The translations under genes were made by a program, and so were the position numbers. From Clostridia bacterium (GTDB lineage Bacteria; Bacillota; Clostridia; UMGS1840): a stretch of 64,000 nucleotides of DNA. Each line of letters starts with the position of its first letter. The stretch's first letter is position 1. Under the pieces are notes generated by a model. That model was given only the letters and a program-made list of their open reading frames with translations, made no database searches and was not told the DNA's origin. The DNA is taken from positions 5,234 to 69,233 of the forward strand of contig JAZRFJ010000028.1 in NCBI GenBank assembly GCA_045661305.1, read 5' to 3'. Positions 8,184 through 51,233 of this stretch are shown here, in pieces.

Positions 8184-9329
8184 CTATTTAAAATAATCTT
8201 TCAATGTACTAAAGAAGCTTTTTCTTTTAGCGTGATTACTGCTTTCACATGCTTCATCAAACTTTTTAAGTAATTCCTTTTGTTTTTGGTTAAGCTTCTT
8301 TGGAATTTCAACCTTAACAATTACATACTGATTTCCGACTCCGCCGCCTCTTAAGTATGGAATGCCCTTTCCTTTAAGCATAAATTTTGCACCGTGCTGT
8401 GTTCCCTCAGGAATTGTCATTTCAATTTTTCCGTTTATTGCAGGAACAATAACTTTACCGCCAAGTGCTGCCTCTGCATATGTTATAGGAAGTTCAACAT
8501 AAATATCAAAGCCTGAACGCTGGAAAATTTTATCAGGTGTTACATTAACCTCGATATAAAGGTCGCCCATAGGTCCATTGTTTTTACCCGGTTCACCTTC
8601 ACCTCTTAGGGTTATTGCCTGACCGTCATCTATACCTGCAGGAATATTAATTTCCAGCTTCTTTGTTTTCCTTTCAACACCATTACCGTTACAGGTTTTA
8701 CATGGTTCTTTTATAATTTTACCTGTACCATTACAATTTGGACAAGTACCTGTTGTCTGAATATTTCCAATAGGTGTTCTCTGAACTTTTCTTACAGTAC
8801 CGCTTCCGTTACAGTTTGAACAAGTTTCAGGGCTTGTGCCTTTTCTTGCACCGCTTCCCATACAGTCTGAACATCTTTCATTTTTAGTTATTGAAATTTC
8901 TTTTTTTACACCAAAAACAGATTCTTTAAATGAAATAGTAACAGCCTTTTGTAAATCTCTTCCTCTTTGCGGACCGTTTCTTCTTGATGAGCCACCTCCA
9001 CCAAAGCCTCCGAAACCACCGCCGAAGAAGGAATCAAATATATCACTAAAATCACCAAAGCCTCCAAATCCACCGCCAAAACCGCCTCCGCCTGCCGTCT
9101 GGTCAAAAGCTGCATGACCAAACTGGTCATACTGCTGTCTTTTTTGAGAGTCAGACAAAACGGCATAAGCTTCATTTGCTTCTTTGAATTTAGCTTCAGC
9201 CTCTTTATCACCAGGGTGCAAGTCAGGATGGTACTGCTTTGCAACCTTTCTGTATGCTTTTTTTAAATCGTCCTCAGTAGCACTTTTAGAAACACCGAGG
9301 ACTTCATAATAATCTCTTTTTTCCGCCAT
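8184..9329 (-). CDS. dnaJ: molecular chaperone DnaJ
   Basis: J domain (YYEVLGV...HPD), G/F-rich linker and four CxxCxGxG zinc motifs. I place the start at MAEKRDYY (9329) rather than the track start at 9356. Confidence 0.95.
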
Positions 9330-9410
9330 CTGTTTTCTGCCTTTCACAACATTCAATCATCGGAGAGTCGAACTCAAACAGTTCAGCTCCCCGATGACTC
9401 TTAGTCTGTT

Positions 9411-11252
9411 TTATTTATTATCCTCGTCAACAACTGTATAATCAGCCTCATAAGCATCATCATCGCCCGCTGACTGCTGTGCACCTGACATATCAGGACC
9501 TGCCCCCTGTGCATTAGGATTTGCCTGTGCGTAAATCTTTTGTGCAACTTCGTTGAATTTCTTTGTCACTTCTTCGCTTGCAGCTTTGATAGCATCTGTG
9601 TCTGTGCCTTTTAATGCTTCTTTTAATTTATCAACTTCAGCCTGTATTCCGGAAACTTCTTCAGGTGATAATTTGTCTTTTACTTCGCCTAAAGTTTTTT
9701 CTGTCTGATATACAAGGCTGTCAGCCTGATTTCTTATTTCAATGCTTTCTTTTTTCTTCTTATCTTCAGCTGCAAACTGTTCAGCTTCTTTAACAGCCTT
9801 ATCAATATCTGCATCTGTTAAATTTGTTGATGCAGTAATTGTTATCTTCTGCTCTGCACCTGTTCCCAAGTCTTTTGCACTTACATGAACGATACCGTTA
9901 GCATCTATATCGAAAGTAACTTCAATCTGCGGAATACCTCTTGGAGCAGGAGCAATACCTGAAAGCTGGAAGTTTCCGAGAGTTTTGTTATCAGCAGCCA
10001 TTTCTCTTTCACCCTGGAGGATATGAATATCAACTGCTGTCTGATTATCTGCTGCTGTTGAGAATATCTGACTTTTCTTTGTAGGAATTGTTGTATTTCT
10101 TTCTATAAGCTTTGTGCATACTCCTCCAAGTGTTTCAATACCGAGTGAAAGCGGTGTAACATCGAGTAAAAGTACATCCTTTACATCACCAGCCAAAACA
10201 CCTGCCTGAATTGCAGCACCAACAGCTACACATTCGTCAGGATTAATACCTTTGAACGGTTCTTTACCGATAAAGTTTTTAACAGCTTCCTGAACAGCAG
10301 GTATTCTTGAAGAACCGCCTACGAGTAATACTTTTGCAATATCTCCGGGCTGAAGTCCTGCATCTGAAAGTGCCTGTTTTGTAGGAATCATTGTTTTTTC
10401 TACAAGGTCAGCTGTAAGCTGGTCAAATTTTGCTCTTGTAAGAGTCATATCAAGGTGTTTAGGGCCTGTTTCGTCTGCTGTGATAAACGGAAGGTTAATA
10501 TTTGCTGTTGCAACACCTGAAAGCTCAATTTTTGCTTTTTCAGCAGCTTCTTTAAGTCTTTGAAGTGCCATTTTATCTTTTCTAAGGTCAATTCCGTTTT
10601 CTTTTTGGAATTCATCTGCAAGATAGTTCATAACTCTTTCATCAAAGTCATCACCGCCAAGACGGTTGTTACCGTTTGTAGCAAGAACTTCAAATACACC
10701 ATCACCGATTTCGAGGATTGAAACATCGAATGTTCCGCCTCCGAGGTCATATACCATAATTTTATGCTCGCTGTCCTTATCAAGACCATAAGCCAAAGAT
10801 GCAGCAGTAGGCTCGTTTATAATTCTCAAAACCTCCAAGCCTGCGATTTTACCTGCGTCCTTTGTTGCCTGTCTTTGAGCATCTGAGAAGTAAGCAGGAA
10901 CTGTGATAACAGCCTGGCTTACAGTTTCACCGAGGTAGCTTTCAGCATCAGCCTTTAATTTCTGTAATACCATTGCTGAAATTTCCTGAGGTGTATAATT
11001 TTTGTCATCAATGTTTACTTTTTTATCTGTACCCATATCTCTCTTTATAGAGCTGATTGTTCTTTCAGGGTTTGTAATTGCCTGTCTTTTAGCAACCTGA
11101 CCTACAAGTCTTTCACCTGCTTTAGTGAAAGCAACAACTGATGGTGTTGTTCTTGCACCCTCTGCATTAGCGATAACTACAGGTTCTCCACCCTCTAAAA
11201 CTGCAACACATGAATTTGTTGTACCTAAATCAATACCAATTATTTTAGCCAT
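9411..11252 (-). CDS. dnaK: molecular chaperone DnaK (Hsp70)
   Basis: 613 aa. [18 protein letters not shown] and other canonical Hsp70 signatures. Confidence 0.98.
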
Positions 11253-11311
11253 AATAAAAATCTCCTTTTTTCTTTTTCTCTTTTTTCTTATTTATCTTTA
11301 CTTATTAAATT

Positions 11312-11854
11312 TTACGCTTTTACCTTAACCATACTATGACGGATTACCTTATCCTTTAACATATAGCCTTTTTGGAATTCGTCAAGCACAGTTCCGCTTT
11401 CTCCTTCGCCCTCTTCACTGTTCATAACTGCGTTATGGAACTCAGGGTCAAACGGGTTCCCAACAGCTTCTATCGGTGTAACACCAAGCTTTGAAAGAGT
11501 GTCATTAAACTTCTTTATAACAAGCTCAATTCCTTTTCTGTAATCCTCAACATTTCCCGTTTCATTTTTCATAGAAATTTCTAAAGTATCCAAAATCGGA
11601 ATAATGTCATTTACTGTGTTTCCGACAGCGAGGTCATAAGTGCCCTCTTTTTCCTTTTGAGTTCTTCTTTTATAGTTGTCAAACTCAGCAAGCAATCTCA
11701 AATATTTATCATTTATTGCGTTTGCATCATCCTTTAGCTTCTGAATTTCATTTTCTAAAGCTTCTTCTTTGGTTTCTTCTTTTTCTTCTGTTGTTTCTTC
11801 AATTTTTTCTTTTTCTGTTTCTTGTACTTTCTCTAATTTTTCTTTCTTTGCCAC
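11312..11854 (-). CDS. grpE: nucleotide exchange factor GrpE
   Basis: 180 aa with acidic/lysine-rich N-terminus, then LRLLAEFDNYKRR. Its position between hrcA and dnaK fits. Confidence 0.95.
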   Translation of the reverse strand: MAKKEKLEKVQETEKEKIEETTEEKEETKEEALENEIQKLKDDANAINDKYLRLLAEFDNYKRRTQKEKEGTYDLAVGNTVNDIIPILDTLEISMKNETGNVEDYRKGIELVIKKFNDTLSKLGVTPIEAVGNPFDPEFHNAVMNSEEGEGESGTVLDEFQKGYMLKDKVIRHSMVKVKA

Positions 11855-11874
11855 TTTTTCTGCCTCCTCCCATT

Positions 11875-12906
11875 TTATTCGCCGTTGCCTAAAAGATTTT
11901 CCATAGTTTTGGACATATTCTCTAAAGTAGTTATAACTTTTTCATAATTCATTCTCTTTGGTCCTATTACTCCAATCATGCCTGTTCTTCCGTCATAAGC
12001 CTTGTAAGAAGTAACAACCAAGCTTAAATCCTTGTCTTTTAACATCGGGCTTTCGTCACCGATAATAACAGTTGTACCTGCATTTTGGGATACGCTGTTT
12101 ACAAGTGCATTAACCTGCTCCTTATTATCAACAAGCTCTAAGAAATCCATAATTTTTTCAGTATCGGAAAACTCGGGTGCTTTTAACATATGTGATTTTC
12201 CGCTCATATACATCTGAGGTGTTCCCTTTTCCTCTAATGTTTCTGTGAGAAAATCAAGTATCATACCGAGTATTTCAAAATTGCTATTGAACTTTGCCTT
12301 AATCTTTTCTATAATTTCAGGCGTAATCATATCAAGCGTACAATGCCTTAATTCCTCGTTTACAATCTCTTTTATATATTCAATGGATTGTTGGGTTATA
12401 GGTGTAAGTATGCGTACCTGCTTACTTCTTACAGCACCTCTGTCGGTAACTAAAATAAACATCAGATAAAACTCTGTTATTTTCAAAATATCAAGGTGGC
12501 TTATTGAACCAAATGTATTATCCCTGATATTAGTTATGGCAGTAAGTCCCGTATTTTCCGAAATAGTCTTTGCCGCAAAATCCAAAAAGCGATTAAGCTC
12601 AAATAAATTTGCTTCCATTTTCGCCTTTAAGATTTCCATTTCCGTGTTTGTTGCCTTTATCTTTTTTATTAAGCTGTCAACATACAAACGGTAACCTGTG
12701 CTTGACGGTATTCTTCCCGCCGATGCGTGAGGCTGTGCCAAAAGTCCCATTTCCTCCAGGTCAGACATTTCATTTCTTATCGTTGCCGAGGATAAACCGA
12801 TATCACATTTTTTTGCAATAGTTCTTGACCCTACCGGCTCCGCCGTTTCTATATAATCCTCTATTAATGCCTTTAAGATGGTCGCTTTTCTTTTATCGAG
12901 TTCCAT
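11875..12906 (-). CDS. hrcA: heat-inducible transcription repressor HrcA
   Basis: 343 aa with N-terminal winged helix EPVGSRTIAKK. It is the first gene of the hrcA-grpE-dnaK-dnaJ operon, with CIRCE upstream. Confidence 0.95.
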   Translation of the reverse strand: MELDKRKATILKALIEDYIETAEPVGSRTIAKKCDIGLSSATIRNEMSDLEEMGLLAQPHASAGRIPSSTGYRLYVDSLIKKIKATNTEMEILKAKMEANLFELNRFLDFAAKTISENTGLTAITNIRDNTFGSISHLDILKITEFYLMFILVTDRGAVRSKQVRILTPITQQSIEYIKEIVNEELRHCTLDMITPEIIEKIKAKFNSNFEILGMILDFLTETLEEKGTPQMYMSGKSHMLKAPEFSDTEKIMDFLELVDNKEQVNALVNSVSQNAGTTVIIGDESPMLKDKDLSLVVTSYKAYDGRTGMIGVIGPKRMNYEKVITTLENMSKTMENLLGNGE

Positions 12907-42655: not shown

Positions 42656-44053
42656 ATGAAAAAATTCATCGGTTCATGGAGTTTTTATAAAAAAACTCTT
42701 ATAATAGCAATTCCGATTATGATTCAAAATCTTATCACAAATTTCGTTGCACTTATTGACAACATAATGGTTGGGAAAATAGGAACCGAACAAATGTCAG
42801 GCGTTGCAATTTCAAATCAGCTTTTTTTCGTTTTTAATTTAGCTGTTTTCGGTTCAATTTCAGGTGCAGGAATATTTTGTGCACAGTTTTTCGGAAAAAA
42901 GGACTACAAAGGTGTCCAAAGCACCTTCCGTTTTAAATTTTTAACTGCAGGTGTTATTACACTTTTAGGATGTATTATCTTTCTTATTTTTGGTGGAAAT
43001 CTCATATCCCTTTATTTACATGATGCACAAAAAGGGATTGACCTTAATAAGACATTTTTCTTTGCAAAGGAATATATGGCAGTAATGCTTATAGGGCTTA
43101 TCCCGTTTTCATTTGAACAGGTATATTCAAGCACACTAAGAGAGGGCGGAATTTCAACACCTCCGATGATAGCGGGAATTGTTGCTGTTATTACAAATAT
43201 TATTCTTAACTATTTACTTATTTTTGGTATAGGATTCTTCCCCGAGTTAGGTGTTATAGGTGCTGCAGTTGCGACAGTAATTTCAAGGTTTGTTCAGCTT
43301 TTTATTGTTATTTTATGGACTCATTCACATAAAAATGAGCTTCCTTATATTAAAAATATTTATAAAACATTTAAAATTCCTGCAAATCTTGCAAAAAGAA
43401 TTTTTATCAAGGGTTGTCTTCCGCTTACAACAAACGAATGTCTTTGGGGAGCAAGCGTTGCCGCACTTGCACAATGCTACTCTGTAAGAGGAATTGATGT
43501 TGTTGCAGGACAAAATATTGCAAACACGGCAATAAACCTTTTTAATGTGCTTTTTATTGCATTTGGCTCGGGTGTTTCTGTTGTTTCGGGACAACTTCTC
43601 GGCGCTGATGACATTGAAGGCGCTAAAGATGCCGCACCAAAACTGATATTTTTCTCAGGTGCAATGTGCGTTGTTGTAGGGTTTGTAATGGCACTGGTTT
43701 CAAAAGTGTTCCCCGAAGTTTATAACACAACCCAAAATGTAAAATCCCTTGCAACTTCTTTTATTTTAATAAGTGCAATATTTATGCCTGTTCATTCAGT
43801 TGTACATTCAACATATTTTATTCTCCGTTCAGGAGGAAAAACTCTTATTACATTTCTTTTTGACAGTGTTTTTGCATGGGGAATAAGTGTTCCGTCAGCT
43901 TTTTTGCTTGCGCACTACACTAATCTCAACATAGTAGCAATATATATTTCAACACAGCTTATAGAAAGTATAAAGTGCGTTATAGGGCTTGTTCTTATAA
44001 AAAAAGGTGTTTGGATTTCAAATATTATAAATGAAAAAAAGTTCAACTCGTAA
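42656..44053 (+). CDS. MATE family efflux transporter
   Basis: 465 aa with 12 TM helices and the typical N-terminal IPIMIQNLITNFVALIDNIMVGKIG. Confidence 0.9.
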   Translation: MKKFIGSWSFYKKTLIIAIPIMIQNLITNFVALIDNIMVGKIGTEQMSGVAISNQLFFVFNLAVFGSISGAGIFCAQFFGKKDYKGVQSTFRFKFLTAGVITLLGCIIFLIFGGNLISLYLHDAQKGIDLNKTFFFAKEYMAVMLIGLIPFSFEQVYSSTLREGGISTPPMIAGIVAVITNIILNYLLIFGIGFFPELGVIGAAVATVISRFVQLFIVILWTHSHKNELPYIKNIYKTFKIPANLAKRIFIKGCLPLTTNECLWGASVAALAQCYSVRGIDVVAGQNIANTAINLFNVLFIAFGSGVSVVSGQLLGADDIEGAKDAAPKLIFFSGAMCVVVGFVMALVSKVFPEVYNTTQNVKSLATSFILISAIFMPVHSVVHSTYFILRSGGKTLITFLFDSVFAWGISVPSAFLLAHYTNLNIVAIYISTQLIESIKCVIGLVLIKKGVWISNIINEKKFNS

Positions 44054-44115
44054 CACACAATGTTGTCAACTCATTAAAATCATTTGCTGATTTTAAAAAA
44101 TAGGAGTGAAAAACT

Positions 44116-45297
44116 ATGGAATACAATAAATTAAGTGACAGTCTTATTGAAAAAATTAAGTCTGACAATCCTGAAAAATTTAAAAGCTATGATAAAGCAA
44201 TCCGCAGGGACAATAATCACGATGTTGCAAACATATGGAGACCTGCGTTTGTAAGAGATATTGAAAAAATTCTTCATTGCCCCTATTATAACAGATATAC
44301 GGACAAGACACAGGTTTTTTCATTCTATAAAAATGACGATATTTCCCGCCGCGCTCTTCATGTTCAGCTTGTTTCAAGAATTGCAAGAAATATCGGAAAG
44401 GTCTTAGGACTTGATTTGGAGCTTATTGAGGCTATCAGTATAGGTCACGATATCGGACATACTCCGTTTGGGCATGCAGGCGAAACCATTCTTAATAAGC
44501 TTTATAATTACCATACGGGAAGATACTTTATGCACAATGTGCATAGTGTGCGTGTTTTAGATAAAATTTTTAATTATAATATTTCACTCCAGACATTAGA
44601 CGGAATTTTATGTCATAACGGAGAGGTTGAGCTTGAAAAATATCAGCCTGTTAAGCTCACAGATTTTTCTGATTTTGATAAGAAGTTTGAAAATTGCTAT
44701 ATCAACAAAGATGCTTCATCAAAGCTTGTCCCCTCAACTCTTGAAGGCTGTGTTGTAAGAATAAGTGACATTATAGCTTATTTGGGTAAAGACCGTCAGG
44801 ATGCTTCAATCGTTGGCTATGAGCCTGATGAAAAAGTATATAACAACGGAAAAATAGGAACATTCAATGCACAGATGATAAATAATCTTATTGTAAATAT
44901 AATTGAAAACAGCTATAATAAGGACTATATTGCACTTGATACAAGTTATTTTGAAGATTTAAAAATTGCAAAAGAAGAAAACTACAGATTTATTTATCTT
45001 AACGACGCAGTTAAAAAGTTTTTGCCTCACATAGAGCCTATATTTGAAAAGATATATAATAAGTGTATTTTTGACCTTGATAAAAAAGATACCACATCAT
45101 TAATATACCGTCACCACATAGATTATATCAAGGAAAGAACACGCTATTACGCAAAGAATAACTATGAAGAAACAGAAAAAAACCAGATTGTTGTTGACTA
45201 TATTGCAAGTATGACAGATGATTATATTACAGATTTATATGCTTACTGGTTCCCAAAAGAAAAACAGATTGAATATATTCCATATTTTTCTGATTAA
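44116..45297 (+). CDS. HD-domain phosphohydrolase (dGTPase-like)
   Basis: 393 aa. RALHVQLVS...GHDIGHTPFGH (HD motif), DGILCHNGE and RISDIIAY. Confidence 0.8.
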   Translation: MEYNKLSDSLIEKIKSDNPEKFKSYDKAIRRDNNHDVANIWRPAFVRDIEKILHCPYYNRYTDKTQVFSFYKNDDISRRALHVQLVSRIARNIGKVLGLDLELIEAISIGHDIGHTPFGHAGETILNKLYNYHTGRYFMHNVHSVRVLDKIFNYNISLQTLDGILCHNGEVELEKYQPVKLTDFSDFDKKFENCYINKDASSKLVPSTLEGCVVRISDIIAYLGKDRQDASIVGYEPDEKVYNNGKIGTFNAQMINNLIVNIIENSYNKDYIALDTSYFEDLKIAKEENYRFIYLNDAVKKFLPHIEPIFEKIYNKCIFDLDKKDTTSLIYRHHIDYIKERTRYYAKNNYEETEKNQIVVDYIASMTDDYITDLYAYWFPKEKQIEYIPYFSD

Positions 45298-45382
45298 AAT
45301 ATGTAGTAACTGTGAAATTAATTGACTTTTCATTTTTAAGAGTATATAATACTTTTTAAACTACTCATCGGAGGGGTATAAT

Positions 45383-46207
45383 TTGTTTGGATATGTTGTA
45401 ACAAACAACAAAATATTAAGTGAAGAGGATAATAAAATTTACCGTGCATATTATTGTGGTTTATGCCATGCACTTAAAGAAAAATACGGTCAAATCAGCA
45501 GACTTACATTAAATTATGATTTGACCTTTCTTGCAATTTTTTTAGATGCAGTCTATGATATTCCCAAAAAAGAAGAACAGCTTGGCTGCACACTCCATCC
45601 GTTTTCAAAGCATTTATGTTATAAAAACGAAATTTTTTCCTACTGTGCGGATATGAATATCGCACTCACCTACTATAAGCTTTTGGATGACTGGTATGAT
45701 GACAAAAATATCTTTGCACTTTTCTCATCGGAATTTTTCAAGAAAAAAATTGAGGAAATTAAGAAAAAATATCCTCGTCAATGCAGTGCAATAGAAGAAA
45801 ACTTAAAAAAGCTTATGAAAGCTGAAAAAGAAAATATTCTTATTCCTGATATTCCTGCCTCACATTTCGGAAATCTTATGGGAGAGCTTTTTTGTTTATA
45901 TGATGACAAAAACTCCGAGCTTTTAAAAAGCTTTGGTTTTGAGCTTGGAGAATTTATTTATATTATAGATGCCGTGAGTGACATAAAAAAGGACATCAAA
46001 CAAAAAAAGTATAATCCGTTAATTACAACACCACGAAAGGATTTTGAAAAAATACTTACTCTTGTTTTAGCAGAATGTACAGATGTATATAATAAAATTG
46101 AAATAAAAAACAACAAATCAATTATTGACAATATTCTTTATTCAGGAATATGGACAAAATATGAACTGAAAAAACAAAGAAAAAAAGAAGGAAAGAAAAA
46201 TGATTAA
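45383..46207 (+). CDS. DUF5685-like hypothetical protein
   Basis: 274 aa with TTG start after GGAGGGG. The N-terminus [35 protein letters not shown] matches my recollection of the DUF5685 family. Not verified by search. Confidence 0.6.
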
Positions 46208-46796
46208 TGACCCATACAGCGTTCTTGGAGTTCCCAAAGGTGCCTCCGAGGACGAGGTTACAAAAGCATACCGTAAGCTTGCAAAAAAATATCATCCTGA
46301 CTTAAATCCCGGAAATAAAGAAGCCGAGAAGAAAATGAGCGAAATAAATGCAGCTTATGAACAAATTAAAAACGGTGATACATCATCTGGTGGATATGGA
46401 AATTATGGAGGATATGGTAGTTATAACAATAATTCTTCTAACACTGACAGATTTTCCGCTGTTGAACACTTTATCCGCTTAGGATATTTTAATGAAGCAA
46501 TAAATGCTCTTAATTCGATAAATGAAAGAAATGCAAAATGGTACTATTACAGTGCTATCGCAAATTACAGACTTCATAACAAGGTTGTTGCTCTTTCACA
46601 TATCGAAACTGCAGTTAGAATGGAGCCGAATAATTATCAGTATCAGGAGCTTCTTAACAGAATTAAAAATAACAGCTATGTTTATGAACAGCAAAGCTCA
46701 ACCTACGAAAGACCGTTTGCATTTCAAAATATCTGCTGGTGGTACTGTGTTATAAACTTTCTTCTTAACTGCTTTTGCGGAAGGGGGTGCTGTTAA
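46200..46796 (+). CDS. J-domain protein with TPR-like middle and a hydrophobic Cys-rich tail
   Basis: 198 aa. DPYSVLGV...YHPD J domain, a G/Y/N-rich linker, and the C-terminus [22 protein letters not shown]. Overlaps the upstream gene by 8 nt. Confidence 0.85.
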
Positions 46797-47203
46797 TGTT
46801 AAATAAGCTAAAAACATCTTTTTTAAGATTTATGACAGGACGCTACGGTCCTGATGCTTTTTATAAATTCCTTTTATATGTTTATATAGCACTTATAATT
46901 ATAAATATATTTATAGGAAGTGCAATTCTTTACTATCTGTCACTTTTTGTACTTATATATATGTTATTTCGTTTTTTCTCAAAAAACATATATAAAAGGC
47001 AGGAGGAAAACCGTAAATACTGGGTAGTTCATGAGAAAGTAAGAAAATGGATTAATCTTCAGAAGAATAAATACAAATTCAGAAAAACCCACATTTACAG
47101 AAAATGTCCTAATTGCAAGGTAAATATAAAATTGCCCAAAATAAAAGGCAAGCACACTTGTACCTGCCCTAAATGCAAAACAAATTTCAGTGTTTCCGTG
47201 TAA
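46796..47203 (+). CDS. membrane protein with C-terminal zinc-ribbon
   Basis: ATG at 46796 overlaps the J-protein stop (TAATG). One or two TM helices, then CPNC...CPKC. Confidence 0.6.
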   Translation: MLNKLKTSFLRFMTGRYGPDAFYKFLLYVYIALIIINIFIGSAILYYLSLFVLIYMLFRFFSKNIYKRQEENRKYWVVHEKVRKWINLQKNKYKFRKTHIYRKCPNCKVNIKLPKIKGKHTCTCPKCKTNFSVSV

Positions 47204-47223
47204 AATAACAAAAGACGCAAGAA

Positions 47224-47255
47224 GGCTGTGAACGATTGCTCACAGCCCTTTTTAT
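47224..47255. terminator. terminator hairpin between convergent genes
   Basis: GGCTGTGA acgattgc TCACAGCC followed by CTTTTT. Confidence 0.7.
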
Positions 47256-47259
47256 ATGT

Positions 47260-47400
47260 TTAGTTATTTCCCCAGCAAAAGATTAAGAATACAGCTATAA
47301 TAATTAAAATTATAACCCAACTGTCTGTACCATTATTATTGTTGCAAGGATTACAACAAGGGTCACAACAGCAGTTGTTATTATCGAATAAACTTGACAT
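47260..47400 (-). CDS. tiny Cys-rich single-TM protein (46 aa; YjcZ-like)
   Basis: Not in the track. The minus strand gives MSSLFDNNNCCCDPCCNPCNNNNGTDSWVIILIIIAVFLIFCWGNN. RBS-like GTGAGG upstream. Confidence 0.45.
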   Translation of the reverse strand: MSSLFDNNNCCCDPCCNPCNNNNGTDSWVIILIIIAVFLIFCWGNN

Positions 47401-47420
47401 ATTAAAAAACCTCACTTTTT

Positions 47421-47609
47421 TTAGTCACAGCAGCCGCAATTTCCGCCGAACATATTTCCTGAAAATCCTCTTCCGCAACCGTCGTCACAGCCGTCATTGT
47501 AGTTGTTATTCATATTTCCGCAGTTACCGCAGAAGAAAAGAAGAACAAAAAGAATGATGAACCATAAAATTGTGTCGTCCTTAAAACCTCTTAAAAATTG
47601 CATAATCAT
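47421..47609 (-). CDS. tiny Cys/Gly/Asn-rich single-TM protein (62 aa; YjcZ-like)
   Basis: MIMQFLRGFKDDTILWFIILFVLLFFCGNCGNMNNNYNDGCDDGCGRGFSGNMFGGNCGCCD. RBS AGGGAG. Confidence 0.55.
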   Translation of the reverse strand: MIMQFLRGFKDDTILWFIILFVLLFFCGNCGNMNNNYNDGCDDGCGRGFSGNMFGGNCGCCD

Positions 47610-47733
47610 ATCTCCCTTTTTAATTTTTTTAAGAAAACCTTAGCGTTGGTATTTTTGGCTACTGTTTCCTTTCACAATCAATATATGTACTTTCCAAAAA
47701 TGTGTTACTTTTTAAAAAAGTTTGTTAAAACAG

Positions 47734-47762
47734 TTGAAATTTATTAAAAAATATGTTAAAAT
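47734..47762 (+). promoter_or_regulatory. sigma-A type promoter of pheST
   Basis: TTGAAA, 17 nt, TAAAAT, about 40 nt upstream of pheS. Confidence 0.45.
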
Positions 47763-47799
47763 AATAAAGTATACATATTTCTAAATTAAAAGAAAGGCA

Positions 47800-48828
47800 A
47801 TGAAAAAAATGAAAGAGGCATTGAAAAATATTCAAATAGCTGCTGAAAAAAAGATAGCAGACGCCACAATTTCTAAAGAATTAGAAGAACTTAGGGTAAC
47901 ATATTTAGGAAAGAAAGGCGAATTAACTTCAATTTTAAAAGAAATGCGTTCTTTGTCAGCTGAAGAAAGACCGATTATCGGACAGATAGCAAACGAAGTC
48001 CGTGATTCAATCGAAAAAATGCTCAAAGAAAAAGGAGCATCTATTTACGAAAAAGAACTTGCAGAAAAACTTAAAAAAGAAAAAATTGATGTTACAATGC
48101 CTTCACGATTTATAAAGAAGGGTCACCTTCATCCGCTTACAAAAACATTAAATGAATTTTATGATATATTCACAGGTATGGGCTTTGAGGTTGCCGACGG
48201 TCCTGAGGTTGAGCTTGATTATTATAACTTTGAAGCTTTAAATCTTCCGAAAGACCATCCTGCCCGTGATACACAGGACACATTTTATATAGATGAAAAT
48301 GTAGTTTTGAGAACTCAGACATCACCTATTCAGGTGCGTATTATGGAGAAAACAAAACCGCCTATAAGATATATTGCACCGGGCAGAGTTTACAGAAGCG
48401 ATGCAGTTGATGCAACTCATTCGCCTGTTTTCCATCAGATTGAGGGTATCGTTGTTGACAAAGGAATAACAATGGCAAACTTAAAGTCAACACTTGAAAT
48501 TTTCTTGAAAAAATTCTACGGTGAGCAGACTAAAATAAGACTTCGTCCGCATCACTTCCCATTCACAGAGCCATCAGCAGAGGTTGATGTTTCTTGCTTT
48601 AACTGTGGTGGTGAAGGCTGCAGAATTTGTAAAGGCGAAGGCTTTATCGAAATTCTTGGTGCAGGAATGATTCACCCTAAGGTTTTATCAAACTGCGGTA
48701 TTGACCCTGAGGTTTATTCAGGCTTTGCGTTTGGTATCGGGCTTGAGAGAATAGTAATGCGTAAATATGATATTGATGATTTAAGATTATACTATGAAAA
48801 TGATCTTAGATTCTTAAAACAGTTTTAA
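47800..48828 (+). CDS. pheS: phenylalanine-tRNA ligase alpha subunit
   Basis: 342 aa with class II aaRS motifs ([29 protein letters not shown]). Confidence 0.97.
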
Positions 48829-48854
48829 AATATTTTAAAAAGGATGTATGAAAA

Positions 48855-51233
48855 ATGAAATTACCTTTAAGCTGGATAAATGAATATACAGATATTTCAG
48901 ACATATCCTACAAACAGTATGAACACGCTCTTACAATGAGCGGCTCAAAGGTTGAGGGCTTTGAGGATATGGCTAAAGATATAGTAAATGTAAAAACAGG
49001 AAAAATAATAAGTATGGAAAAACACCCTGATGCTGACAGACTTACAGTATGCCAGGTTAATATGGGGGAAAAAATCGGAGTAATTCAGATTGTTACTGCC
49101 GCAACAAATATGAAAGAAAATGATATTGTTCCTGTTGCACTCCATAAGTCAACTATCAAAGGCGGAGCAAAAATTGAAAAAGGAAAATTAAGAGGTGTTT
49201 TATCTAACGGTATGTTCTGCTCAACAGATGAGCTTGGTATCGGTGAGCCTAATGTTAAAGCAACTGGACTTCTTATTCTCCCATCCGATGCACCGCTTGG
49301 TATGGATATTGTTGAATATTTAAAATTAAATGACGCAATTTTTGATTTTGAAATCACTTCAAACCGCCCTGACTGCCTTAGTGTAATCGGTCTTGCAAGA
49401 GAAACAGCCGCTACATTCGGAAGAGCTTTTAATGTGAAAAAGCCTGTTGTTAAAGAGCTTGCAGGCGGAGATATAAATAGCGAGTTGAAAGTTGATGTTG
49501 AAAATTTCGAGCTTTGCAGAAGATATACAGCGAGAGTTGTAAAAAATATTAAAATTGAAGAATCACCAGAGTGGCTTAAAAGACGCTTGATTGCCTGCGG
49601 AGTAAGACCGATAAACAATATAGTTGATATAACAAACTATGTTATGCTTGAATACGGTCAGCCTATGCACGCATTTGACATTAAAAACATAAAAGACAGT
49701 CACATAATCGTCAGAAACGCAAAAGAAAACGAAACTATCACCACTTTAGACGGTATTGAAAGACAGTTATCTTCCGAAATGCTTGTTATCTGTGATGCCG
49801 ATAAGCCTGTTGCTATTGCAGGTGTTATGGGCGGAGAATTTTCAGGAATAACTGAAGATACAAAAACAATCGTTTTTGAAAGTGCTGCCTTTAACGGTGC
49901 ATCAGTAAGAAAGACAGCTAAAAAAGTAGGTCTTAGAACAGAAGCTTCTGCAAGATATGAAAAAGGTCTTGACAAGGAAATGGTTGTTGATGCGTTAGAA
50001 AGAGCGTGCGAACTTATTGAAGAGCTTTCATGCGGTGAAGTTGTAAAAGGCGTTATCGACAGAAATAACGACGAAACAAAAGACATAAAAATAAAATTCG
50101 AGCCTGCAAGAATAAATGAATTTTTAGGTACATCAATTGATGAAAACGAAATGATAAAATCACTTGAGGCACTTGAGTTTGAAGTGAAAGACGGATATAT
50201 AATTCCGCCGTCATTTAGAATTGATATTGAATGCTTTAATGATATTGCAGAGGAAGTTGTAAGAATACACGGATACGATAAAATTCCATCATCTCCTATG
50301 CAGGGTTCAGGCTTTGAGGGCGGTCTCAACAAACAGCAACAACTTGAAAAAGAAGCTAAAATGACTTTGGCAAATTTAGGACTCAGTGAAATATATACTT
50401 ATTCCTTTGAAAGTCCAAAAGCATTTGATATGCTCCTTATCCCTGAAAATTCAGATTTAAGAAATACAGTAAACATCTTAAATCCGCTTGGCAGTGATAT
50501 GTCAATTATGCGTACAACACCGCTTTATGGTATGTTGTCTACACTTTTATTAAATGAGAATAAGCGTGCAAAAGAGGCGTATCTCTTCGAGGTTGCAAAA
50601 ACATATCAGAAAATAAATGGTGAACAGCTCCCGAAAGAAACACAAAACATTACAATCGGAATGTTTGGAAATGATGTTGATTTCTTTAAATTAAAAGGTG
50701 TATGCGAAGAATTACTCGATGTATTTTCTATAAAAAATGCTAAGTTTGAAGCGTGTGAAACTGCTCCGTCATTCCACCCATACCAGACAGCAAAAATACT
50801 TTATAACGGTGAAGAAGTGGGTATAATGGGACAGATTAACCCGACAGTAAGAAATAATTTCAACATAGAAAATCCTGTTTTCTGTGCAATTATCTATTTC
50901 ACAAAAATCTGTGAGCTTGACATTGAAACTGTAAAATACAAACAGCTTAACCGTTTCCCTCAAAGTGAAAAAGATTTCAGCGTTGTTGTAGATGAAGATA
51001 TAACAGTTGATATGATTAAAGAAGTAGCTAAGAAAACTGCCGGTGAAATGCTTACCTCAATTGAGCTTTTTGATATTTATAAGGGAAGTCAGATACCAGA
51101 GGGCAAAAAGAGTGTTTCTTTCACATTTACTCTTGAAAATTATGAAAGAACTCTTACTGACGAAGAAACAAACGGTATGCTGGGTAAGATTATCGAAAGT
51201 GTAAAAGAAGCTTTCGGAGCAGAATTAAGATAA
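48855..51233 (+). CDS. pheT: phenylalanine-tRNA ligase beta subunit
   Basis: 792 aa. MKLPLSWINEY start, tRNA-binding, B3/4, B5 and FDX-ACB domains in order. Confidence 0.97.
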   Translation: MKLPLSWINEYTDISDISYKQYEHALTMSGSKVEGFEDMAKDIVNVKTGKIISMEKHPDADRLTVCQVNMGEKIGVIQIVTAATNMKENDIVPVALHKSTIKGGAKIEKGKLRGVLSNGMFCSTDELGIGEPNVKATGLLILPSDAPLGMDIVEYLKLNDAIFDFEITSNRPDCLSVIGLARETAATFGRAFNVKKPVVKELAGGDINSELKVDVENFELCRRYTARVVKNIKIEESPEWLKRRLIACGVRPINNIVDITNYVMLEYGQPMHAFDIKNIKDSHIIVRNAKENETITTLDGIERQLSSEMLVICDADKPVAIAGVMGGEFSGITEDTKTIVFESAAFNGASVRKTAKKVGLRTEASARYEKGLDKEMVVDALERACELIEELSCGEVVKGVIDRNNDETKDIKIKFEPARINEFLGTSIDENEMIKSLEALEFEVKDGYIIPPSFRIDIECFNDIAEEVVRIHGYDKIPSSPMQGSGFEGGLNKQQQLEKEAKMTLANLGLSEIYTYSFESPKAFDMLLIPENSDLRNTVNILNPLGSDMSIMRTTPLYGMLSTLLLNENKRAKEAYLFEVAKTYQKINGEQLPKETQNITIGMFGNDVDFFKLKGVCEELLDVFSIKNAKFEACETAPSFHPYQTAKILYNGEEVGIMGQINPTVRNNFNIENPVFCAIIYFTKICELDIETVKYKQLNRFPQSEKDFSVVVDEDITVDMIKEVAKKTAGEMLTSIELFDIYKGSQIPEGKKSVSFTFTLENYERTLTDEETNGMLGKIIESVKEAFGAELR

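Follow-up and report, generated by a model that had tools for sequence, protein, structure and literature searches.

A DUF5685 protein with a predicted isoprenoid-synthase fold is encoded as a conserved pair with a specialised J-protein in Clostridia

What does a J-domain protein do in an operon whose other two genes encode a protein of the DUF5685 family and a small zinc-ribbon membrane protein? This question is raised by a locus in a 64,000-nucleotide stretch of DNA from a Clostridia bacterium (GCA_045661305.1, contig JAZRFJ010000028.1, positions 5,234 to 69,233 of the forward strand), the whole of which we call the window. Three open reading frames (ORFs) follow one another there: ORF1 encodes the DUF5685 protein, ORF2 the J-protein and ORF3 the membrane protein (Table 1). 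An earlier sequence-only reading had taken the trio for a dedicated, membrane-associated Hsp70 co-chaperone module. We find that the DUF5685 gene and the J-protein gene form an obligate pair and that DUF5685 is predicted to have the fold of isoprenoid synthases. With a confidence that falls just short of even, we favour an Hsp70-serviced module in which a membrane-proximal enzyme acting on a prenyl diphosphate would work with a dedicated J-protein and DnaK.

To define the unit, we scanned one genome per species with a DUF5685 alignment, which yielded at least 593 confirmed relatives, and counted the neighbours at 80 of these loci by running hidden Markov models of the four families against six-frame ORFs. 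A J-domain ORF lies directly downstream of the DUF5685 gene in all 80 species-level loci, and 76 of them also show the C-terminal half specific to this J-protein family; the other four are clipped by contig ends. In 76/80 the J gene begins before the DUF5685 gene has ended or no more than 10 nt from its stop codon, most commonly in the arrangement ATGA. The zinc-ribbon gene adjoins the pair in 38 of the 71 evaluable loci, after the J gene in 22 and directly before DUF5685 in 16, and there is none within 6 kb in 31. The idea that the three genes always co-occur thus holds for the DUF5685-J pair and fails for the zinc-ribbon gene, which also occurs alone. We also looked up five J-protein homologues (in a Clostridium intestinale-like genome, Acetivibrio cellulolyticus, a gut metagenome-assembled genome and two close relatives); in all five the J gene was directly preceded by DUF5685 and had a gene of about 135 amino acids (aa) downstream. 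The unit is an obligate DUF5685-J pair, often joined by a small membrane protein and now and then by an Hsp70.

Carriers of DUF5685 among the confirmed relatives are mostly Clostridia (Clostridium, Sedimentibacter, Dehalobacter, Oscillospiraceae including Faecousia, Lachnospiraceae and Christensenellales), with further carriers in the Erysipelotrichaceae and two spirochaete/Treponema genomes. The pair is kept at 30% identity in Pusillibacter faecalis, where it lies amid housekeeping genes and is labelled by NCBI as 'DUF5685 family protein' and 'J domain-containing protein'. This locus (L092; NZ_AP023421.1 162150-164072) belongs to pMM59_01, a 504-kb record labelled as a plasmid; the record carries cdaA, gmk, rpoZ and priA and is therefore chromid-like. 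An RseC-family small membrane protein is encoded there 4 nt upstream of the pair, in place of the zinc-ribbon protein. All-against-all clustering of the neighbouring ORFs revealed no further widely shared partner of the pair. The other recurrent neighbours were set aside: they comprise lineage-specific synteny (the BrkB family, Asp23 and others), generic ABC ATPases and antisense shadow ORFs. The last are long ORFs opposite the DUF5685 and J genes at higher-GC loci (L066 6106-6804 (-), L038 6863-7645 (-) and about 40 more), and their clusters are an artefact of stop-to-stop ORF calling, not gene families.

ORF1 is a full-length member of the Pfam family DUF5685 (PF18937; E 2.4e-93, 312.9 bits against a cut-off of 26.7), its residues 1-261 covering profile positions 1-271 of 272. 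It has 3,260 database homologues, and NCBIfam holds no model for it. Without a transmembrane (TM) segment (Kyte-Doolittle 19-residue maximum 1.16), it is predicted to be soluble, with a length of about 270 aa. The C-terminus has a median net charge of +3 among homologues and is polybasic in 71% of them, which would suit peripheral membrane binding. We aligned 30 sequences with 44-79% identity to the query (alignment A1) and looked for invariant residues. These include M1 and G3 (F2 is nearly invariant), E148, D156, N211 and P212, together with three striking groups. The first is a Cys3His set made up of C25 and C28, in the CGLC core of the YCGLCH motif (residues 24-29), and of C69 and H72 in a CxxHP motif. 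The second is an acidic motif with D102, D106 and D107 (LDDWxDD; DDWYDD in ORF1), and the third another acidic motif, DAxxDxxxD, in which D196, D200 and D204 are spaced i, i+4, i+8. R40 and K206 are the only conserved basic residues among the invariants.

A profile search of 1.84 billion representatives found 6,015 clusters at 50% identity; the best 150 matches are all single-domain DUF5685 proteins and provide no bridge to annotated families. Longer matches were considered as domain fusions and ruled out, as they are insertions, N-terminal mis-starts or frameshift read-through. Some relatives with a high-GC-type composition, for which P0476 (400 aa) and P0457 (342 aa) stand as examples, have about 60-100 aa of low-complexity sequence inserted after profile position ~150, or else long acidic or Ala-rich C-terminal extensions. 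The family appears to extend beyond low-GC Firmicutes.

Because the pattern of acidic motifs resembles the metal-binding motifs of class I isoprenoid synthases, we tested DUF5685 for the isoprenoid-synthase fold. The AlphaFold2 model calculated from A1 (mean predicted local distance difference test score, pLDDT, 88.9; predicted template-modelling score 0.87) is all-helical with one beta-hairpin (residues 63-81), which bears C69 and H72. Each of the two acidic motifs closes a helix at its C-terminal end (83-107 and 178-206, respectively). When the model was compared with the PDB by Foldseek, 49 of the 50 best matches were prenyltransferases or polyprenyl synthases, including MoeN5 (the best match of all) and octaprenyl, hexaprenyl, solanesyl, geranylgeranyl diphosphate (GGPP) and farnesyl diphosphate (FPP) synthases; the exception was a UbiA-type membrane prenyltransferase. 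These matches have probabilities of about 1.0 and template-modelling scores of up to ~0.6. An alignment by hhalign, which uses sequence only, matched LDDWYDD to the first Asp-rich catalytic motif of E. coli IspB and IspA and IIDAVSD to the second, in register: D102-D107 align with the HDDxxD of IspB, and D196 and D200 with the first and last Asp of its DDLLD. A Pfam scan of ORF1 gave no polyprenyl_synt, SQS_PSY or terpene-synthase match, and a profile search of PDB sequences with DUF5685 found none. By its predicted model, then, DUF5685 is a divergent isoprenoid-synthase-fold protein that retains both metal/diphosphate-binding motifs, and we do not assign it to an existing family.

In the isoprenoid-synthase superfamily, the Asp-rich motifs serve as binding sites for Mg2+ and for the diphosphate group of prenyl diphosphates. 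From the predicted fold and the retention of both motifs, DUF5685 is probably an enzyme that uses a prenyl diphosphate. The hhalign alignment, which spans residues 78-205 only, contains no counterpart of the GKRxR or KT elements that bind isopentenyl diphosphate (IPP). Since no IPP-binding signature was recognised in DUF5685 and the nearest structure, MoeN5, uses a non-IPP acceptor, it is more likely, by analogy with MoeN5 and ComQ, to transfer a prenyl group or to ionise a prenyl diphosphate than to elongate chains as FPP and GGPP synthases do. The Cys3His set could form an additional metal site.

A fold does not always carry a reaction, and DUF5685 might be an inert helical scaffold paired with a general membrane recruiter of DnaK of the DjlA/DjlC kind, the two being encoded together for co-assembly only. 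Non-catalytic members of this fold do exist: heteromeric hexaprenyl and heptaprenyl synthases have small subunits of this kind, which are among the structural matches (3aqb, 9a4c). In addition, the sequence similarity of DUF5685 to active synthases is not significant. However, those inert subunits lack the Asp-rich motifs, whereas six acidic residues are invariant in the 30 DUF5685 sequences, and conservation of the acidic motifs among proteins of 44-79% identity is hard to explain without binding of a ligand or metal. We therefore hold the scaffold explanation to be improbable and continue to favour a prenyl-diphosphate enzyme.

The partner of this putative enzyme is a J-protein of distinctive layout. 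The sequence-only reading had described ORF2 as a bona fide J domain followed by a TPR-like region and a hydrophobic tail with six cysteines, and the first two of these are borne out by Pfam matches to DnaJ (PF00226; E 4.6e-21) and Fis1_TPR_C (E 3.6e-07, 30.7 bits, cut-off 25.3). In the AlphaFold2 model, the J domain (1-58) is followed by a disordered G/Y/S-rich linker (62-82), whose length varies among homologues, and by a five-helix TPR-like domain (86-158) with pLDDT above 90. Next come a disordered but conserved Y..QS..Y..P segment and the Cys-rich hydrophobic tail (177-198), part of which is modelled as a low-confidence terminal helix (178-192). The HPD motif at residues 32-34 is invariant in an alignment of J-protein homologues (A2); the database holds 3,637 homologues of ORF2, many of them through the J domain alone. 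Foldseek matched the model to J domains (E. coli DnaJ, with a root-mean-square deviation of 1.1-1.7 Å, and DNAJC5) and to the small TPR domains of RPAP3, SGT, Hip and Fis1 (7yka, 8xwx), which are co-chaperones or adaptors.

Given that ORF2 has a J domain with HPD and lacks the class A/B zinc finger and the DnaJ C-terminal domain (the Pfam/NCBIfam scan gave no DnaJ_C or DnaJ_CXXCXGXG match), we assign it to class C (type III). Its matches to named co-chaperones are confined to the J domain and fall far below the NCBIfam cut-offs: 75 bits against 377 for the DnaJ equivalog TIGR02349 (residues 5-99 only), 35/162 for DjlA, 34/403 for CbpA, 61/300 for TopJ and 41/150 for ActJ. The same is true of HscB, with 21.4 bits against 46.75 for TIGR00714 (E 2e-4, residues 19-58 only) and 15 against 189 for PRK05014. 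By these comparisons, ORF2 is not orthologous to any named co-chaperone, and an objection that would have tied it to an unrelated, characterised role falls away.

The tail is where the description of ORF2 needs qualifying. Its six cysteines are present, and the corresponding 22-mer holds 4-8 Cys in 119 of 120 homologues, but it is only moderately hydrophobic, its best 19-residue Kyte-Doolittle mean being 1.16 against the usual TM threshold of 1.6, and it also contains Asn, Asp and Arg. In these respects it resembles a cysteine string or an amphipathic anchor more closely than it does a standard TM helix, and membrane anchoring through it is plausible.

A Cys-packed tail encoded next to a putative prenyl-diphosphate enzyme raises the idea that the J-protein is the substrate of DUF5685 and not its chaperone: DUF5685 might transfer a prenyl group to a Cys (or Trp) of the J-protein's cysteine string, and the lipidated J-protein would bring DnaK to the membrane. 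This would be a bacterial counterpart of farnesylated Ydj1/DNAJA and of the palmitoylated cysteine-string protein, in a layout like that of ComQ-ComX. In comQ-comX the gene for ComQ, a polyprenyl-synthase-like enzyme, is arranged in the same way with that of the peptide it prenylates; here, the gene of the putative substrate overlaps that of the enzyme or lies within 10 nt of it in 76 of 80 loci. MoeN5, the best structural match, is a prenyltransferase with a non-IPP acceptor, and the tail, too polar for a classical TM helix, has in nearly all homologues the composition expected of a lipidated cysteine string. Protein prenyltransferases activate thiols with Zn2+, which the invariant Cys3His could hold. 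Against this, four protein ligands would leave such a Zn2+ without a free coordination site, no Cys position of the tail is strictly invariant in A2, and the cysteine string is internal, not C-terminal, in J-protein variants of 285 aa. We also know of no bacterial protein S-prenyltransferase. We consider prenylation of the string in this broad form, the chief rival of our reading, unlikely, and its narrower form, S-prenylation of the string's cysteines by DUF5685, a shade less likely again; neither displaces our preference for a module in which Hsp70 would act on the enzyme complex.

We next asked which Hsp70 the J-protein would serve. The only Hsp70 in the window is the housekeeping DnaK, and a tblastn search with the operon-borne Hsp70s of loci L002 and L004 matched nothing else there (67-69% identity). 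Its gene lies about 35 kb from the trio in a heat-shock operon with hrcA, grpE and dnaJ, which were identified from their ORF sizes; DnaK alone was identified by similarity. In this genome, the J-protein presumably partners with the housekeeping DnaK. Elsewhere, a DnaK-like Hsp70 gene adjoins the DUF5685-J pair in 13 of the 80 loci (10 of the 61 evaluable ones), and among the five look-ups two show an Hsp70 gene of 582 or 516 aa directly upstream, namely those in A. cellulolyticus and in the gut metagenome-assembled genome. The operon-borne Hsp70s are 516-598 aa long as against 613 aa, being shorter at the C-terminus, and are 55-70% identical to the window DnaK. Copies encoded upstream of DUF5685 mostly share 70-85% identity with one another, even between genera, a pattern that fits a lineage of paralogues. 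The proposal of a dedicated Hsp70 co-chaperone module is strengthened by this DnaK paralogue within the operon.

A dedicated Hsp70 and J-protein pair is also the hallmark of HscA/HscB, and the module might be a clostridial counterpart of HscA-HscB-IscU, working on metal or iron-sulfur (Fe-S) centres, in which the Cys3His set, the Cys-rich tail and the zinc ribbon would bind a metal or cluster or hand it over, Hsp70 would drive transfer and the isoprenoid-like fold would be only a scaffold. Conserved Cys ligands occur in all three proteins, and the sub-cut-off TIGR00714 hit described above is a weak, J-domain-level match to HscB. But ORF2 lacks the HscB C-terminal domain, the spacing of its tail cysteines is not fixed, the neighbourhoods show no recurrent genes for IscU, IscS or Suf, and the invariant acidic motifs of DUF5685 would be left without a role. 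Taken together, these points make an Fe-S function decidedly improbable, and we return to the module built around a prenyl-diphosphate enzyme.

The third gene varies among loci, and where it is present it always codes for a membrane protein. ORF3 has an N-terminal GRYGxD, a two-TM hairpin (about 20-66; one long hydrophobic stretch with a Kyte-Doolittle 19-residue maximum of 2.43), an FSKNIxKRxxEN segment, a basic linker and a C-terminal CPxC...CPxC zinc ribbon, as seen in its alignment. It has 111 database homologues, no Pfam family beyond weak zinc-ribbon matches and no NCBIfam model. Homologues of 39-40% identity stand alone at L090 4001-4414, L091 4001-4429 (one in a Carnobacteriaceae genome, one on another metagenomic contig), with no DUF5685 or J gene within 4 kb; because of these solo homologues, the zinc-ribbon family is broader than the module. 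At Lachnospiraceae-type loci without the zinc-ribbon gene, an ORF of 185-186 aa with several TM segments and an MYGRR start overlaps the J stop codon (L048 7463-8020, L055 7427-7987, L075 7393-7953). Pfam has no match for this ORF, which could serve the pair as an alternative membrane partner.

How might these parts work together? From the genes, domains, coupling, co-occurrence, predicted fold and motif conservation described above, we infer a complex, its membrane location, its catalysis and its Hsp70 target as follows. The J-protein would combine a J domain with a tail-anchored TPR adaptor of the Fis1 type, held by its Cys-rich tail at the cytoplasmic face of the membrane, the site of polyprenyl substrates. 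Its TPR domain would bind DUF5685 and, at loci that encode the two-TM protein, the cytoplasmic zinc ribbon of the latter. HPD would stimulate ATP hydrolysis by DnaK, the housekeeping protein here and the operon-borne paralogue in about one in six genomes, and Hsp70 would remodel, load or recycle the DUF5685 enzyme complex. The predicted isoprenoid-synthase fold shifts the likely theme of the locus from the assembly of Cys-rich proteins to prenyl-lipid chemistry.

Several results weigh against this proposal and keep it tentative. The Foldseek E-values are borderline, at about 1e-3, so that the structural assignment is a call at the level of fold only, and the hhalign alignment of DUF5685 with IspB/IspA falls short of significance (probability 0.2, E 0.28). 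None of 85 loci has a gene for a prenyl-diphosphate synthase inside 6 kb of the module. The hydrophobicity of the J tail stays under the usual TM threshold. Finally, most genomes have no dedicated Hsp70, and in the window the link to Hsp70 is the J domain alone.

The layout of the locus itself is listed in Table 1. The three coupled ORFs, the 8-nt overlap, YCGLCH, HPD, the six-Cys tail and the CPNC...CPKC ending of ORF3 were all found where the sequence-only reading had placed them, as was the TAATG overlap between ORF2 and ORF3 (46794-46798). The program-made ORF call starts ORF3 at a TTG at 46775; because the homologue P0241 is 135 aa long and 99% identical at 100% coverage, we place the start at the ATG of TAATG. 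The promoter-like site matches 11 of 12 positions of the sigma-70-type consensus, the best score in the region, as a consensus match only. Downstream of ORF3, the terminator-like hairpin has an 8-pair stem with 5 G-C pairs and is followed by CTTTTTAT. By these predicted signals, the trio is a single translationally coupled operon with a vegetative-type promoter.

Table 1 Features of the DUF5685-J locus and related genes in the window.
Feature	Position	Strand	Details
ORF1 (DUF5685 protein)	45383-46207	+	274 aa; TTG start; opens MFGYV as in all homologues
ORF2 (class-C J-domain protein)	46200-46796	+	198 aa; ATG 8 nt inside ORF1
ORF3 (small membrane zinc-ribbon protein)	46796-47203	+	135 aa; ATG start
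Shine-Dalgarno GGAGGGG	45370-45376	+	8 nt 5' of the ORF1 TTG; read from sequence
Sigma-70/sigma-A-type promoter-like site, TTGACT-17 nt-TATAAT	45322-45350	+	5' of ORF1; consensus match
Terminator-like hairpin and T run	47224-47247	+	3' of ORF3, between convergent transcription units
Small Cys-rich ORF	47260-47415	-	51 aa; one TM segment
Small Cys-rich ORF	47421-47609	-	62 aa; one TM segment
HD-domain dGTPase-like protein	44116-45297	+	393 aa; directly 5' of the module
Heat-shock operon	8184-12906	-	
hrcA	11875-12906	-	
grpE	11312-11854	-	
dnaK (housekeeping DnaK)	9411-11252	-	613 aa; only Hsp70 in the window
dnaJ	8184-9356	-	

The sequence-only reading had also suggested that this membrane Hsp70 co-chaperone module serves the assembly of the spore envelope or of Cys-rich proteins, together with the two small convergent Cys-rich peptides encoded downstream. 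Most carriers are Clostridia, and the small ORFs are real genes conserved in the two nearest relatives; they are, however, absent from all 85 more distant loci, so their link to the module comes down to local synteny. The module is also found in spirochaete, Treponema and Erysipelotrichaceae genomes, and the spirochaete and Treponema carriers are not known to form spores. In addition, the promoter is of the vegetative type, no sporulation-type -10 element was seen upstream by eye, and the neighbours elsewhere are housekeeping genes (cdaA, gmk, rpoZ, pheST, ammonium transporters) with no sporulation genes among them. We judge a role in the spore envelope to be very improbable, the least so favoured of the readings considered here, and the module for prenyl-diphosphate chemistry remains our preferred account.

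The two small ORFs are of interest in themselves. They contain Asn/Cys/Gly-rich low-complexity parts, such as NNNCCCDPCCNPC and GNCGCCD, have no Pfam or NCBIfam match, and are conserved at 61-79% aa identity in the two close relatives (L088 6294-6614, L089 6057-6407), where they are unannotated. They look like real membrane-protein genes that have escaped annotation and are unrelated to the DUF5685-J module. The trio is flanked on the 5' side by a MATE transporter gene and the HD/dGTPase-like gene and on the 3' side by pheS-pheT. The HD/dGTPase-like protein reaches at best 174.7 bits against a cut-off of 393 for an NCBIfam dGTPase equivalog; given that it lies well below every such cut-off, it is a divergent paralogue, and its gene stands beside the module in L088 and L089 and not elsewhere. 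In many Firmicutes pheST is preceded by a T-box leader. A search of Rfam at the gathering score over 44000-49000 found no family, including no T-box in the ~190-nt pheS leader (47610-47800), so a pheS leader without a T-box is unexpected here.

We also considered anti-phage defence and rejected it: in PADLOC neither DUF5685 nor the J-protein had a match, ORF3 had only a zinc-ribbon match at the level of chance, and the DUF5685 family is essentially absent from phages and plasmids. The carriers on mobile elements are two 'Bacteriophage sp.' faecal contigs and two large plasmid/chromid records only. The two contigs, unannotated and of human-faecal origin (MT835652.1 15937-16725, MT835850.1 822-1616), hold DUF5685 relatives of 37-40% identity; they could be either bacterial contigs assigned to phages by mistake or true cases of phage carriage.

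DUF5685, to which Pfam and NCBIfam assign no function, is mentioned once, in passing, in the searchable literature. Nothing was found there about the J-protein family of ORF2, about cysteine-string J-proteins of bacteria or about an Hsp70 tied to an isoprenoid-fold enzyme, and nothing relevant about Hsp70 paralogues in Clostridia; a literature search for the C. acetobutylicum locus tag CAC0472 gave nothing either. What is new here is the placing of DUF5685 in a predicted fold with testable chemistry (a prenyl diphosphate and Mg2+) and its obligate coupling to a specialised J-protein, sometimes along with a DnaK paralogue of its own. Dedicated Hsp70/J systems are few in bacteria (HscAB, HscC-DjlC), and each revealed a specific use of Hsp70 other than folding. 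Such modules are thus already known, and it is the partner enzyme that is unexpected here. If either is borne out, tying Hsp70 to isoprenoid-lipid chemistry or to the lipidation of a co-chaperone would be a new use of Hsp70, in a system present in many dominant gut Clostridia (Oscillospiraceae, Lachnospiraceae, Faecousia). Were S-prenylation to prove correct, it would be the first bacterial-encoded prenylation of protein cysteines acting on a bacterial protein, and the J-protein would be a bacterial lipidated cysteine-string co-chaperone of Hsp70, widespread in gut and environmental Clostridia.

Several known systems resemble parts of this module. The C-terminal half of ORF2, a small TPR bundle followed by a hydrophobic tail, is like Fis1; unlike Fis1, it is fused to a J domain and its tail is Cys-rich and less hydrophobic, and the likeness may be that of a generic TPR fold. 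With DNAJC5 (the cysteine-string protein) and DNAJA/Ydj1, ORF2 shares an N-terminal J domain, 52% identical to that of DNAJC5 in a structural alignment, and as in DNAJC5 the J domain is followed by a short Cys-packed segment that likely attaches to membranes. ORF2 differs from them in being bacterial and in having a shorter string (4-8 Cys) and neither a CaaX box nor DHHC/CaaX transferases, and its lipidation is hypothetical.

Closer to home, DjlA and the HscC-DjlC/DjlB system of E. coli include class-C J-proteins with a hydrophobic membrane-targeting segment and sometimes a non-housekeeping Hsp70, as in the module, whereas ORF2 has a Fis1-like TPR domain and a Cys-rich tail, and no homology to DjlA, DjlB or DjlC was detected outside the J domain. 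HscA-HscB likewise has a specialised J-protein encoded beside its presumed client and sometimes beside its own Hsp70 paralogue. There, however, the J-protein has the HscB C-terminal domain, which is missing from the module's J-protein; the operon-borne Hsp70s here are DnaK-like (55-70%), not of the HscA type, and the partner is an isoprenoid-fold protein, not the IscU scaffold. The trans-isoprenyl diphosphate synthases and class I terpenoid synthases (IspA, IspB, GGPP synthase, MoeN5, ComQ) have the all-helical fold of the DUF5685 model, with a first DDxxD(D) at the end of a long helix and a second acidic motif about 95 residues further on, at the end of another. In contrast to these enzymes, DUF5685 has DAxxDxxxD in place of DDxxD as its second motif and no recognised GKxxR/KT, is shorter at about 270 aa, carries an extra beta-hairpin with the Cys3His set, and is always encoded with a J-protein.

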